A stretch of 32,000 nucleotides of DNA from Candidatus Saccharimonadota bacterium (lineage in GTDB: Bacteria; Patescibacteriota; Gracilibacteria; BD1-5; UBA6164): NCBI GenBank assembly GCA_963677765.1, contig OY782392.1, positions 1,016,297 through 1,048,296 of the forward strand, in the 5' to 3' direction. The position numbers and the translations under genes are program-made. The notes under the pieces were generated by a model. It did not search any database. It was not told where the DNA came from and worked only from the letters and a program-made list of their open reading frames with translations. Numbering within the stretch: position 1 is the stretch's first letter; each line of letters opens with the position of its first letter. Positions 1 to 32,000 of this stretch are shown in pieces.

Positions 1-16
1 TTTAGTTTATTTATAT

Positions 17-43
17 TTGACATTATTTTTTGTTATATATAAT
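17..43 (+). promoter_or_regulatory. candidate sigma70-type promoter for the tRNA gene
   Basis: TTGACA at 17-22 and TATAAT at 38-43, about 18 nt upstream of the tRNA 5' end. The 15-nt spacer is shorter than optimal. The AT-rich background makes chance hexamers likely. Confidence 0.35.
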
Positions 44-60
44 ACACAATACACATTTAA

Positions 61-143
61 CGGGGTATAAGTCTCAGTTGGTAGAGCTATCATATCTAGA
101 TAAGATATGATGTGGGGTGGTTCGAGTCCATCTACCGCGACCA
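61..143 (+). tRNA. tRNA-like gene, Ile(GAU)-like anticodon, non-canonical geometry
   Basis: T-arm GGTGG-TTCGAGT-CCATC (116-132). Acceptor CGGGGTA/TACCGCG (61-67/133-139) has one G.G opposition at 3:70. Discriminator A and encoded CCA (141-143). D-loop AGTTGGTA. The hairpin TCATATC-TAGATAA-GATATGA (90-110) places GAT at the anticodon position. Confidence 0.6.
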
Positions 144-150
144 ATTTATA

Positions 151-176
151 AGTCTAGCAATTAGCTAGACTTTTTC
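151..176 (+). terminator. intrinsic terminator after the tRNA
   Basis: 8-bp stem AGTCTAGC/GCTAGACT (151-158/164-171), loop AATTA, then a T-run at 172-175. Confidence 0.7.
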
Positions 177-215
177 TATATTAATTAATTATAACTTTAA
201 GTAAATAAATTATTT

Positions 216-249
216 AAAAAAGTAATAAATTATAATTTATTACTTTTTT
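216..249. terminator. hairpin terminator, serves the minus-strand dedA-like gene
   Basis: Perfect 15-bp stem AAAAAAGTAATAAAT/ATTTATTACTTTTTT (216-230/235-249) with loop TATA. A/T runs flank both sides. It contains the dedA-like stop codon (240-242). Confidence 0.65.
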
Positions 250-1010
250 CATAACTGTTCTAGTTCAGCATTTTTTTCTTTCATATAATTCATAAATTCA
301 ACTTTTTTATACTTATAAATATAAAATGCAACTAATCAAAATATTACTAACATAATTTTTCAAGCATGTTCTAATAGAATTTCATAATATTCAACAAATA
401 CTACACCTAATCATATTATAGTTATTGACCGAATTATTGATCAAACTATATTATATATCATAAAACTTATACTTTTCATTCACATACTTCCAGCTATAAA
501 TGGTAGAAATGCTCTGGTCATTGGATGAAATTTTCACAAAATTATTCACCAAGCTCACCATTTATCTATAGATTTTTTTAAATATTTTACTTCTGTTAAT
601 CATATTCAAAACCAATTACCATATTTAGTAAAAAAACTATCTCAATAATATTTTCATAATATATATCATATATAATTTCATATAATAGCTCATAAAGAAG
701 CTATTAACATCAAATATATAAGGTTTAGATAGCTAATTGATCAAAAAAATCATCATACTATAAGTAGTATATTTTGTCATGGTATAACTACTCAAATAAC
801 AGGAAAAGCTTCTATTAGACTACTAGAAAATCATATAAAATAATTCCAGTATCATATTCATTCGACTACTATTTTCATCCATTCAATAAATGCTTCTATC
901 CATTCTTTTTTAAATATAGCTATAAATGCTAGTGCTATAGTAAATATTATTAAAAGTATATTAATGGTATTTATTATTATTTTTACAAGGTTTTTTAACT
1001 TTTCTTTCAT
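240..1010 (-). CDS. DedA family membrane protein
   Basis: 256 aa, open only with TGA=Gly. Multi-TM protein with DedA-type segments EAFPVIGVVIPGQNILLIVGG and GKFHPMTRAFLPFIAGSMGM. ATG at 1010-1008, TAA at 242-240. Confidence 0.85.
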
Positions 1011-27955: not shown

Positions 27956-28663
27956 TAGCATTATAAATATTTCTTTATTTCAATTTTCTCATTTCATTTT
28001 TGATTCCTCTAATTTAATTATTTTTAATCATATATTACGACAATTATCTAAAAATTCGTTAAGTTTTATTTTTGAAATATTGTCATTTTTAACAACTCAT
28101 TTTTTATTTATATATTTAGTTCATACTTCAAATTGGGGTTTGAATAATAATATAACCAAGGTATTTTTTGATATAAAATTATTAATACTATCAATTATTT
28201 GATTCAAGCTTATAAAACTAACATCACAAGTTATAATATCTATATTATCATCTAACTTTTCTAGTTTTCTTATATCAGTATTTTCTTTTATTATTATTTT
28301 CTTATTATTTCTTAGTTTTTCATGTAATTGACTTGTTCATACATCAACAGCATATATTTTTGATATATTGTTTTCAAGTAGTATTTGACAGAATCCTCCA
28401 GTGCTACTTCATATATCTAGAGCTACTTTCCCTTCTGTATTTATATAGTTTGATTCAAATAGTCATTTTAGTTTAATCGCACTTCTAGCCACATAATTAG
28501 TTTCGTCAAGTTCAGTTATTTCTATAATATCATTATCATTTACTTCGTATCCTGTTTTTGTAATTTTTATTCATCATACTGTAACATTTCATGATTTTAT
28601 AATAGCTTGTGCTTTGTTTCTTGTAATATTTTTTTTATTTTTAATATATTGGTCTAATCTCAT
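27944..28663 (-). CDS. tlyA: TlyA family rRNA (cytidine-2'-O)-methyltransferase
   Basis: 239 aa. S4-like N-terminus (MRLDQYIKNKKNITRNKAQAIIKSGNV), then FtsJ-type motifs VALDIGSSTGGF and TCDVSFISL. Confidence 0.88.
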
Positions 28664-28666
28664 ATT

Positions 28667-29056
28667 TTATTTAGATAATAGGTTTTCAACTGGTAACATT
28701 AATGGTGATGGTAGATTATCTAAATCAAACCATTCCCATTTTTCACACTTATCTGGCTCCATATTTATTAATTCACCTCAAAGGTAATCTCATTTCATAA
28801 ATATTGTTATGTAATGCTTATTTTCTTTATAGAAAAAATCATTAGTTAAATCTAAGAATTCTACATTAGTTATATCAATATTTGTTTCTTCTTTTGTTTC
28901 TCTTATAACACAAGATTCAAATGTTTCCATAAATTCTAAATGTCATCATGGCGGTGCCCATGTTCATTCTCAATGAGCTCATTTTCTAAATCATAATAAT
29001 ATTTTATTATCCCTTAATATAAAAACACCAACTCATACTCTAGGAATATTTTTCAT
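28667..29056 (-). CDS. Nudix hydrolase
   Basis: 129 aa. Nudix box [23 protein letters not shown]. Ends 3 nt upstream of the tlyA start, so probably one operon. Confidence 0.88.
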
Positions 29057-29200
29057 AATATTGATTTTATTTTTTAATACTTTATTTATAATTAAAAATA
29101 ACTAATTTTAAAATTTTTTTAACAATAAAATATATTTTAGATTGTAAAATATATATTTTTTTATAGATTATAATATATACTTAATATATAATTATTGTTA

Positions 29201-31420
29201 ATGCAATTAAATCCAAAACAAGAAGAAGCGAAGAATAAAATAAATTGACCTGTTCTAATTATAGCATGAGCTTGAAGCTGAAAAACAGCAACTCTAACAG
29301 CAAGAGTACAATATATGATATGAGAAAAAAATATCTCTGCATCTAATATTATGATGGTTACTTTTACAAATAAAGCTGCTACAGAAATGAGAGAAAGGGT
29401 TGCTAAAACACTTTGAGTTGAAGTACCAAGAAGTATTTACTCTAAATGAAATTTCCCTTTAATATGAACATTTCATTCAATTTGAATTTATATACTAAAA
29501 GATGTTTTAAATAGATATTCAGCAGAGGAATTACAAATATGACTAAGAAAAGATTTTGTAATATATGATGAACAAGATAAATTAAGTGTTTTAAAAAATA
29601 TATTAAAAAATAAATTAAATCTTGATGAAAAAGAATTCCCAGCAAGACAAATAGCTTTTTATATTAGTAATGCAAAAAATAGTTTAATTACTGCTAAATG
29701 ATATGAAAGAGAAGTTGATAGTACTATAAAAGAAGTAGTTTATAAGGCTTATTTAGAATACGAAAAAGACCTGATAAGTAATAATGCTATAGATTTCGAT
29801 GATATATTAATCAAAACTTATGCTGCTCTAAGAATTAAGAAAATTTTAGAAGAATATCAAGAAAAATACAAATATTTGATGGTAGATGAGTATCAGGATA
29901 CTAATTTAGTTCAATATGAAATAGTTAAATTATTAGCAGACAGATATAAAAATCTAGCAGTTGTAGGTGATGATAGTCAATCTATCTATAGCTGGAGAGG
30001 TGCTGATATGAGAAATATAATTAATTTCAAAAAAGATTACCCTGATGCTTTAATTATAAAACTTGAGCAAAATTATAGATCCACTAAAAAGATTATATCT
30101 TGAGCTAATTCTGTTATAGATAAAAATACAAGCGGTATTAAAAAAGAATTATGGACTGATAATAATGAATGAGAACATATTAATTATATTGAAGCACCAG
30201 ATGACAAAATAGAAGCAAGTATAATTACTAATATCATAAAAGAAAAAGATTGAAACTATAAAGATAATTTAATACTTTATAGAACCAACGCTCAATCTAG
30301 AAAAATAGAAGAATCATTAATGACATCATGAATACCATATAGAGTTATTTGAGGTCAAAAGTTTTATGATAGAAAAGAAATAAAGGATTTATTAGCTTAT
30401 TTAAGAGTTATTTTTAATCCTAATGATACTGTATCAATGAAAAGGATTATAAATACTCCAACAAGAAAAATATGAAATAAATCAATTGAAACACTAGATA
30501 TGTATAAGGAAAATTTTTGATTAACTTATCCACAAATTATTGAAAATATAGATGAAGTAGAAGAATTAAATTCTTGAGCCAAAAATGCTATAAAAAATTT
30601 TAATATTTTATTTGAAGATTTAGTAAAATTATCTCATGAAATATTAGTTTCAGAACTAATTCAAAAAGTAATTAAAATGACTAATTATGAAGAATATATT
30701 ACTTCTTGATTAAGTCAGGAGGAAAAGGATTCAAAAATAGAAAATATGGATGAGTTGATAAATGTAGCAACTCAATATAATTGAATGGAAGCAAGAGAAA
30801 GTTTAGCTATATTTTTAGAGGAAGTATCATTGATTACAGATATGGATACAAAAGATGATAGAAGTGATTATGTGACTTTAATGACTATACATACAAGTAA
30901 ATGATTAGAAGAAAAAAGAGTTTTTTTAACTGGATTAGAGGAGTGACTATTTCCATCATTTAGAAGTATCAACGATAATAATGCATTAGAAGAAGAAAGA
31001 AGATTAATGTATGTTGCTATGACTAGAGCAAGGGAAGAATTGTATATTTCAAGAGCAAAAGAAAGATTTAATTTTGGTGATTATGTAAGAAATCCAGAAA
31101 GTAGATTTATAAAAGAAATAGATGAAAACTCTATTATTGATTATGATATGTCAGAATTTTTAGAATCTAAAAATAATTATTTCTCAAGAAGTTTTTGATG
31201 ATTTGATTCAAAAATATCAAATGATACATGATTTTCTAAACCCAAGATAAAAGTATCTAATAATGATGTAAGTCAATTCTCTATCTGAGATAAAGTATCT
31301 CATCCTAAATTTGGAAATTGAATAATTACTAGTTTATCTTGAGAATTAGCAACTATTGCATTTACTTGAAAATGAGCTGTAAAAATGAATATAAAAATAG
31401 CACCTATTAGAAAGCTCTAA
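29201..31420 (+). CDS. pcrA: ATP-dependent DNA helicase PcrA/UvrD
   Basis: 739 aa, fully translated without stops using TGA=Gly. Motifs [50 protein letters not shown] and [11 protein letters not shown]. The track ORFs 29876 and 31007 are in-frame fragments; 29442..29645 (-) is antisense. Confidence 0.95.
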
Positions 31421-31436
31421 AAAAATTTTATAATTT

Positions 31437-31476
31437 AAAAAAATTAGTTATATTTAATATATAACTAATTTTTTTA
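31437..31476 (+). terminator. intrinsic terminator after pcrA
   Basis: 12-bp stem AATTAGTTATAT/ATATAACTAATT (31442-31453/31459-31470), loop TTAAT, then a T-run at 31471-31475. Confidence 0.75.
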
Positions 31477-31481
31477 AATAT

Positions 31482-32000
31482 ATGACAGAATTCAAAAACA
31501 ATAGAGAAACAAAACTTAAAATAAATTATAAAGAATATAAAAATAAAGATAATATTGAAACAATTGTTATACTTCATTGATGGTGATGAAGTAGTGATAG
31601 TTGGGTAGAAGTATGAGAAATATTATCACAAAATTGATTCAATGTTATTATTCCAGATTTACCTTGATTTTGAGAAACAAAACTAAATTATGAATTTGAT
31701 TTAAATGAATATGCAAAAGTTGTTTCAAATTTTTTAAAAGAATTAAATTTAAATAACTTTATATTATGGTGACATAGTAATTGAGGAGCTATTTCTATAA
31801 AAATAGTAAACACAAATATTTTTAATATAAAAAGGTTAGTATTAAATAATAGTGCATGAATAAGAAATGATAAAAAAAGGAGTTTTAAAAGAAACTTTTT
31901 CATTAATGCTATTAAACCATTTAAGTTTTTATCTAAGTTTAGTAAATTAAGAATGTTTTTTTATAAACTTATTTGATCTAGAGATTATTTGAATTCTGAA
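31482..32000 (+). CDS. alpha/beta hydrolase (3' end beyond window)
   Basis: At least 173 aa. Motifs VILHGWGGSSDSW and the nucleophile elbow LWGHSNGGAIS. It runs off the window in frame. The track ORF 31688..31903 (-) is antisense. Confidence 0.8.

Follow-up and report, generated by a model that had tools for sequence, protein, structure and literature searches.

The window analysed here, a stretch of 32,000 nucleotides (contig OY782392.1, positions 1,016,297 to 1,048,296), is almost certainly Gracilibacteria chromosomal DNA that follows translation table 25, in which UGA encodes glycine and translation ends only at UAA or UAG. UGA behaves in silico as a read-through codon that occupies glycine rather than tryptophan positions and alternates with GGN codons in the relatives, and the genes stop at UAA or UAG where the homology ends. 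This code is already known, and the genome is one more case of the published table 25 with nothing new in kind. The only lead beyond current knowledge, possibly a new one, is a glycine-specific avoidance of UGA in dnaA.

Reading frames and the residue at TGA

The window is very AT-rich, with a guanine plus cytosine (GC) content of about 22%. Under the standard code (table 11) the whole window has 11 open reading frames (ORFs) of at least 80 amino acids, and stop-to-stop ORFs of at least 100 amino acids cover 15% of it. With TGA as a sense codon the coverage is 93%, and a control in which TAG was made sense gave 19%. Greedy ORF calling with TAA and TAG as sole stops resulted in 29 genes and a coding density of 91%. 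One of these genes is cut by the window end, and the remaining 28 are complete, with TAA as the stop in 21 and TAG in 7. The initial annotation had described the conserved genes as mostly broken under the standard code, and had counted 29 genes, with TAA or TAG as their stops, when TGA was read as sense, which agrees with what we find. It had also placed terminator hairpins at the gene ends. Such hairpins are enriched over shuffled sequences (8 as compared to 1.2 expected, and 4 as compared to 1.4 expected), but the scanner could detect them near only about five gene ends, at 150–172, 3992–4016, 6177–6203, 12925–12958 and 26758–26781.

Across the called genes, about 9,700 codons, there are 502 in-frame TGA, 110 GGN and 48 TGG. 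TGA thus makes up 5.2% of the codons and GGN 1.1%, and together they give a normal glycine content, in which the TGA share pooled over the window genes is 502/612 (82%). There is a mild trend for this share to drop as the GC of the non-glycine codons rises (Spearman rho = -0.55, p = 0.004, n = 25).

If the genes used the standard code and had been broken by TGA, either through degradation into pseudogenes or through systematic sequencing or assembly errors, nearly every gene would likewise appear fragmented under table 11. Against this, the frames are interrupted by TGA only, never by TAA or TAG, there are no frameshifts, and the 502 TGAs prefer conserved glycine columns. Relatives assembled independently, 80 in all, repeat this pattern, with the orthologous TGA conserved in 51%. 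Furthermore, a TGA-free gene at 26493–26753 is identical on two independent Logan assemblies, and the genes on one of these two run through many in-frame TGAs. We regard degraded or erroneous sequence as virtually inconceivable.

To identify the amino acid, proteins were translated with an X at each TGA, so that TGA had no influence on the alignments, and the masked window proteins were aligned to 16 orthologs from Escherichia coli K-12, which uses the standard code. The 268 TGA codons compared in this way were found opposite glycine in 148 cases (55%), alanine in 21, a gap in 16 and tryptophan in at most 3, while the background in the aligned E. coli residues is 6.8% glycine and 1.0% tryptophan. 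The controls behaved in the same manner: GGT was aligned to glycine in 37 of 53 cases and GGA in 11 of 17, and TGG, aligned to tryptophan in 8 of 23, was the sole codon with an enrichment of that residue. The initial annotation had named TGA columns that align with tryptophan as one outcome that would speak against glycine, and such columns are, as seen, at background level.

The Pfam scores show the same picture. The 13 domain matches, from 10 proteins, add up to about 2499 bits with TGA as glycine, 2189 bits with TGA masked and 2087 bits with TGA as tryptophan. Glycine scored above the masked version in 13 of 13 matches and was the highest in all of them, and tryptophan was the lowest in 11 of 13. 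The matches are nearly full-length across the TGAs, for instance 2–313 of 314 model positions for GltX, 3–180 of 182 for ClpP and 1–271 of 271 for UvrD.

Individual motifs make the position of the codon clear, and all motif coordinates of the initial annotation proved exact when we rechecked them on the sequence. In the DnaA Walker A motif, G-D-V-[TGA]-L-G-K-T, the TGA is at 15919–15921. The DnaX P-loop (20521–20547) reads TGA CCT AGA TGA ACA TGA AAA ACA ACA, the Walker A motif of a PriA-like protein (22351–22374) reads [TGA]VT[TGA]S[TGA]KT, and the adenylate kinase (Adk) P-loop, on the minus strand at 14667–14696, reads [TGA]IQ[TGA]C[TGA]K[TGA]TQ. An ABC signature at 3683–3697 reads L-S-TGA-TGA-E. 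It had been claimed that these TGAs fall on invariant glycines, and those in the DnaA, DnaX, PriA and Adk P-loops are indeed all glycine in E. coli. When the ABC signature is included, the 13 motif TGAs are all glycine in E. coli except one: of the two signature TGAs, one is glycine and the other is valine in the degenerate LSVGQ of MdlB.

Tryptophan at UGA, as in table 4 of Mycoplasma, Spiroplasma and several insect endosymbionts, would explain the gain in ORF coverage with TGA as sense equally well, and table 4 lineages, too, typically have a very low GC. The initial annotation held that the Mycoplasma-type code is excluded by TGG still being tryptophan, as in the E-W-G of DnaA (TGG at 16258–16260). 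This does not follow, since TGG is tryptophan in table 4 as well, and it is the residues at the TGA columns, not the use of TGG, that exclude table 4. Tryptophan at no more than 3 of 268 columns equals the 1% background and stands against 148 glycines in E. coli, and the summed Pfam score for tryptophan is below that of the masked proteins and far below that of glycine. In addition, TGA swaps with GGN among the relatives and not with TGG, the relatives are Gracilibacteria by nearly all of their titles, and the proteins would need to contain about 5.7% tryptophan. This meaning of UGA is exceedingly improbable.

It is also conceivable that UGA is ambiguous, mostly glycine but in addition a context-dependent stop, or mis-decoded, for example as tryptophan by tRNA-Trp(CCA), where tRNA denotes transfer RNA. 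Single peptides with tryptophan, alanine, aspartate or lysine at UGA have been reported (Hanke et al., PMC4032931), wobble at U34 makes cross-reading of UGA and UGG conceivable (PMC8629427), and the gene-wide avoidance of TGA in dnaA described below would make sense if UGA decoding were costly. On the other hand, the in-frame TGAs are spread evenly over the gene deciles (chi-square p = 0.43), and the nearest are found only 1–3 codons upstream of the true stop. The TAA and TAG stops match the C-termini of the orthologs; in secF, ispA, clpP, gltX, dcd, adk, dnaA, murE and rlmD they lie 0–13 amino acids from the E. coli C-terminus. The even spread and the position of these stops imply that TGA is not a terminator to any visible degree, and as TGA is 5.2% of the codons, even a modest termination at UGA would abolish the full-length products. 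Ambiguous decoding is also at odds with the P-loops of DnaX, PriA and Adk, where every glycine is TGA. We judge a dual meaning to be very unlikely, and UGA as a glycine codon remains our reading of the window.

Relatives, decoding machinery and known codes

Relatives were retrieved among GTDB species representatives with DnaA translated with TGA as glycine. This gave 80 species-level relatives with a DnaA identity of 51–89%, nearly all titled Candidatus Gracilibacteria and some titled Peribacteria or Patescibacteria. The lineage suggested in the initial annotation is thereby supported, by the DnaA relatives and their same recoding, on the basis of record titles and identity. With the exception of a distant group of about 40% GC, the relatives all carry the recoding signature, with an ORF coverage of 3–59% under the standard code versus 80–98% with TGA as sense, and the gene order around dnaA is common to the window and the relatives. 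In 441 ortholog pairs, with TGA masked, window TGA was found opposite TGA in 51% and opposite GGN in 23%, window GGT opposite TGA in 42% and opposite GGN in 41%, and window TGG opposite tryptophan in 86%. TGA and GGN interchange while TGG stays tryptophan, which makes TGA in this clade a synonym of GGN and not of TGG.

The distant group (L073–L078 and L081; DnaA about 51% identical, GC about 0.40) is 57–82% open under the standard code. TGA makes up 14–25% of its glycine codons, with 27–80 in-frame TGAs per locus, and the same reassignment appears to have advanced less far in this group. Many relatives titled 'Candidatus Peribacteria' (L009, L016, L028, L031, L036, L037 and others) have the full recoding signature, with a coverage of at most 0.17 under the standard code versus at least 0.81 with TGA as sense, and their DnaA is 71–79% identical to that of the window. 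These titles probably reflect automated labelling. UGA as glycine has been reported in Gracilibacteria and Absconditabacteria (PMC8629427), which matches the claim that it is described only for these two.

By the mechanism established for this lineage, a dedicated tRNA with the anticodon UCA would carry the glycine acceptor-stem identity elements G1:C72, C2:G71, G3:C70 and U73, the glycine identity rule given by Shulgina & Eddy (PMC8629427), and because of these elements glycyl-tRNA synthetase would charge it with glycine. Release factor 2 (RF2), which terminates at UGA, would have been lost, and release factor 1 (RF1) would terminate at UAA and UAG. Once UGA is glycine, GGA to UGA would be a synonymous single G-to-T change, and we propose that this, combined with an AT-biased mutation pressure, would have made UGA the main glycine codon (82%). 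For this genome we infer the presence of tRNA-Gly(UCA), the absence of prfB and the history of mutational pressure. All BD1-5 genomes available in 2019 had prfA, and prfB was detected in none of them (Sieber et al., PMC6851277). In the proteomics of a BD1-5 bacterium, 97 peptides were unique to UGA as glycine, 3 to tryptophan and 0 to stop (Hanke 2014, PMC4032931).

The expected tRNA was also searched for in metagenomes with one DNA pattern, made up of the glycine identity elements, the UCA anticodon and the universal T-loop. In the 120 returned stretches (L095–L214), ARAGORN found 67 tRNA(UCA) genes, and two families account for 64 of these; examples are found at 4832–4907 of L193 and 3491–3564 of L121. 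Among the host contigs of at least 2 kb, 46 of 51 gain at least 0.2 in ORF coverage when TGA is sense. Family A is 74 nucleotides long without an encoded CCA, its contigs have a median GC of 0.34 (range 0.25–0.41), and 29 of 30 contigs of at least 2 kb show this gain. Family B is 76 nucleotides long plus an encoded CCA, with a median GC of 0.27 (0.18–0.44) and the gain in 17 of 21. Rfam assigns both families to its general tRNA model, with no match to the selenocysteine model; family B scores 45.9 bits with the tRNA model as compared to 62.8, and the copy on L133 falls below the gathering threshold for a report. The finding is one about recoded low-GC metagenome contigs, on which the expected tRNA is common.

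Some results weigh against UGA being glycine in the window. ARAGORN found no tRNA genes in the 32 kb, and no tRNA(UCA) within 10 kb of dnaA in 82 related loci, where the tRNAs are those for leucine, tyrosine, threonine, glutamine, lysine and glutamate only. The glycine identity elements of the metagenomic tRNAs were imposed by the search pattern and are therefore not independent evidence, and the flanks of the two families do not tie them to the window's clade, as the homology consists of scattered matches of 28–61% identity. Of the TGA columns, 45% are not glycine in E. coli; this is expected, since the pairwise identity is 25–47% and the GGT and GGA controls reach only 65–70%. Finally, two 'Gracilibacteria' genomes retain RF2 and use UGA as stop (Shulgina & Eddy, PMC8629427), so that membership of the lineage is no proof on its own, a gap that is covered by the direct evidence from the TGA columns.

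For table 25, PMC8629427 cites Campbell et al. 2013 and Rinke et al. 2013. The window has every feature of this code that 32 kb can display: UGA as glycine, UAA and UAG as stops, UGG as tryptophan, low GC and relatives among the Gracilibacteria. The tRNA(UCA) genes with glycine identity elements are a feature of the lineage and would be expected in this genome. The differences are of degree. With about 22% GC the window lies at the AT-rich extreme of the 0.21–0.53 range (PMC8629427), and UGA is the dominant glycine codon here (82%), as compared to 14–25% in the relatives with about 40% GC. Table 4 is similar in that the same codon has been captured, that standard-code gene calls fragment, and that there is a link with low GC and with loss of RF2, the latter being reported for the window's lineage. 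It differs in that UGA in the window stands at glycine and not tryptophan columns, and it belongs to other lineages.

The sister lineage Absconditabacteria has an extended code with UGA as glycine and CGA and CGG as tryptophan (Shulgina & Eddy 2021, PMC8629427). Besides UGA, the window shares with it a strong depletion of CGN: in the approximately 9,700 codons there are 0 CGA, 0 CGC, 1 CGG (codon 194 of the gene at 240–1010) and 5 CGT. Unlike in the Absconditabacteria, CGA and CGG are too few in the window to infer their meaning. CGA in the relatives is arginine in 127 of 204 cases and lysine in 34, and judged by these alignments CGA as tryptophan is not supported for the window's clade. The 25 CGG codons of the relatives are mixed, with 3 on one tryptophan column: in L006, L039 and L046, CGG is found opposite the window TGG (tryptophan) at codon 125 of MurE (gene 19077–20384), which would fit the published CGG as tryptophan in some Gracilibacteria.

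Glycine codons of dnaA

The dnaA gene (15421–16839, plus strand, 472 amino acids) is the sole large gene of the window that avoids TGA, with 7 TGA and 18 GGN. An uneven use of TGA had been proposed from hand counts, which we could reproduce: 7 of 25 glycine codons in dnaA, 15 of 21 in secF and 0 of 9 in two small ORFs, namely 0 of 6 at 26493–26753 and 0 of 3 at 5760–6170. In a binomial test against the pooled TGA share of 0.82, the unevenness stands for dnaA (p = 5e-10) and for the ORF at 26493–26753 (p = 2.6e-5), but not for secF (p = 0.24). The glycine codons of dnaA are 15 GGT, 3 GGA and 7 TGA, as compared to 62, 27 and 495 in the other window genes (p = 1e-12), and its codon usage for every other amino acid is ordinary. 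In columns with glycine in E. coli, dnaA has 1 TGA and 11 GGN, and the other genes have 147 TGA and 38 GGN.

The avoidance is not confined to the window. In 68 of 78 genomes of relatives, the TGA share of dnaA is below that of the rest of the locus, and dnaA shows by far the strongest effect of any gene family (stratified z = -16.4, observed/expected 0.74), followed by adk (z = -5.6). When 37 loci were matched for identified control orthologs, the TGA share was 0.54 in dnaA versus 0.73, and lower in 34 of them (Wilcoxon p = 9e-9). In every family, conserved glycine columns have the same TGA share as variable ones, which implies that the effect acts on the level of the gene and not of the site.

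Several explanations were considered and rejected. A general GC or codon bias is contradicted by the GC at third positions of the non-glycine codons, 0.059 in dnaA versus 0.077 elsewhere, and by the other amino acids, which are no different. Recent horizontal transfer does not fit with the identity of DnaA to its relatives, which is in line with that of ClpP, Dcd and GltX. Protection of critical residues would make conserved glycine columns differ from variable ones in their TGA share, which they do not. An artefact of differing locus subsets is not consistent with the lower share of dnaA persisting in 34 of the 37 matched loci (p = 9e-9). The bias from retrieving the loci with DnaA is small, as glycine is found in 1 of 6 seeding peptides and the set retains 80 of the 89 confirmed loci.

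Tentatively, dnaA may be under a lineage-wide selection against UGA glycine codons that is specific for glycine and acts on the whole gene, UGA decoding being costly or regulatory. We put this forward as a possibility that is on balance rather unlikely. The costs could be such as slow or error-prone decoding, dependence on the supply of tRNA-Gly(UCA), or vulnerability to interference by phages. Perhaps the initiator, and a few genes like the one for a TGA-free 86-residue membrane protein, are insulated from UGA decoding. To our knowledge, gene-specific avoidance of a reassigned codon has not been reported for table 25.

This 86-residue hydrophobic protein is encoded on the plus strand at 26493–26753 (0 TGA; its six glycine codons are all GGN, p = 2.6e-5) and is followed by the hairpin at 26758–26781. 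Identical copies are present on two Logan contigs (L001 and L002), and a weak syntenic homolog with 31% identity is found in L004 at 21044–21304. The gene may have been recently acquired, or it may be under the same constraint as dnaA. The other TGA-free ORF, at 5760–6170 on the minus strand, has 136 residues from a GTG or 69 from an ATG at 5969, with 3 GGN. It is free of TGA over 136 codons in a genome with 5% TGA codons. It is doubtful as a gene and may not be a real one, as no homolog was found in the relatives and no called gene on record corresponds to its 69-residue version (5760–5969).

The surroundings of dnaA are also of some interest. The RNase P RNA gene of bacterial class A (rnpB; RF00010, 122.7 bits, model positions 1–367 of 367) is located at 14742–15150 on the minus strand and fills most of the 706-bp gap between adk and dnaA. 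No DnaA boxes of the form TTWTNCACA were found upstream of dnaA in 14715–15420. Directly after dnaA, in place of dnaN, there is a gene for a DUF4012 protein (16928–19024, plus strand, 698 amino acids, 29 TGA and 5 GGN), an arrangement common to 43 relatives.

Other genes and significance

The protein identities given for the window come from Pfam on the X-masked translations. In what follows, each gene is given with its coordinates, strand, length in amino acids (aa) and numbers of TGA and GGN codons.

The left part of the window begins with a DedA/VTT-domain membrane protein (240–1010, minus, 256 aa, 24 TGA, 3 GGN), which has the sole CGG of the window. It is followed by SecF (1208–2227, plus, 339 aa, 15 TGA, 6 GGN), an MdlB/MsbA-like ABC exporter (2243–3997, plus, 584 aa, 31 TGA, 5 GGN), undecaprenyl-diphosphate synthase UppS (4113–4790, plus, 225 aa, 16 TGA, 1 GGN) and an IspA-like polyprenyl synthase (4809–5729, plus, 306 aa, 22 TGA, 1 GGN). 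After the doubtful small ORF come ClpP (6263–6880, minus, 205 aa, 13 TGA, 4 GGN) and glutamyl-tRNA synthetase GltX (7072–8550, plus, 492 aa, 22 TGA, 4 GGN). Two hypothetical proteins are found next, one at 8643–9032 (plus, 129 aa, 6 TGA, 0 GGN) that is kept in 12 relatives, and one at 9091–9552 (plus, 153 aa, 6 TGA, 1 GGN) that is kept in 11. The genes up to rnpB encode dCTP deaminase Dcd (9558–10133, plus, 191 aa, 15 TGA, 5 GGN), a MiaB-like radical-SAM methylthiotransferase (10228–11649, plus, 473 aa, 27 TGA, 4 GGN), a hypothetical membrane protein (11651–12943, plus, 430 aa, 19 TGA, 1 GGN), a hypothetical protein kept in 36 relatives (12940–14106, minus, 388 aa, 23 TGA, 4 GGN) and Adk (14106–14714, minus, 202 aa, 12 TGA, 5 GGN), with its four P-loop TGAs.

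To the right of the DUF4012 gene are a MurE-like Mur ligase (19077–20384, plus, 435 aa, 25 TGA, 7 GGN) and the DNA polymerase III tau/gamma subunit DnaX (20443–21882, plus, 479 aa, 20 TGA, 1 GGN), with three P-loop TGAs. The PriA-like protein (21892–22845, plus, 17 TGA, 3 GGN, of which three TGAs are in Walker A) consists of the N-terminal half only. Its 317 aa comprise the 3'-DNA-binding domain and the first helicase lobe, as compared to 732 aa in E. coli PriA, and no C-terminal PriA half is encoded beside the gene. The orthologs in the relatives are 313–330 aa long in 29 of 29 cases, which shows that the short form is conserved.

Further on follow a cNMP-binding domain protein (22864–23706, minus, 280 aa, 14 TGA, 1 GGN), a PilT-like type II/IV secretion ATPase (23723–24808, minus, 361 aa, 19 TGA, 4 GGN) and an RlmD/TrmA-like RNA m5U methyltransferase (24881–26350, minus, 489 aa, 33 TGA, 4 GGN). 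Beyond the small membrane protein, the genes encode an NAGPA-like protein (phosphodiester glycosidase; 26843–27916, plus, 357 aa, 25 TGA, 3 GGN), a TlyA/FtsJ-like ribosomal RNA methyltransferase with an S4 domain (27944–28663, minus, 239 aa, 11 TGA, 4 GGN), a Nudix hydrolase (28667–29056, minus, 129 aa, 9 TGA, 2 GGN), a UvrD/PcrA helicase (29201–31420, plus, 739 aa, 31 TGA, 7 GGN) and an alpha/beta hydrolase that is cut by the window end (31482–32000, plus, 11 TGA, 1 GGN).

The practical weight of the code lies in annotation. Gene calling with table 11 shatters nearly every gene, leaving 11 short ORFs in place of 29 genes, and table 4 would place tryptophan at about 500 glycine positions. The window lies at the AT-rich extreme of the published code and is useful chiefly as a case where the captured stop is now the majority glycine codon (82%), and the lineage forms a natural series for the takeover by UGA as GC falls. 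If the avoidance in dnaA reflects selection, it would provide a way to study what a reassigned codon costs in fitness.

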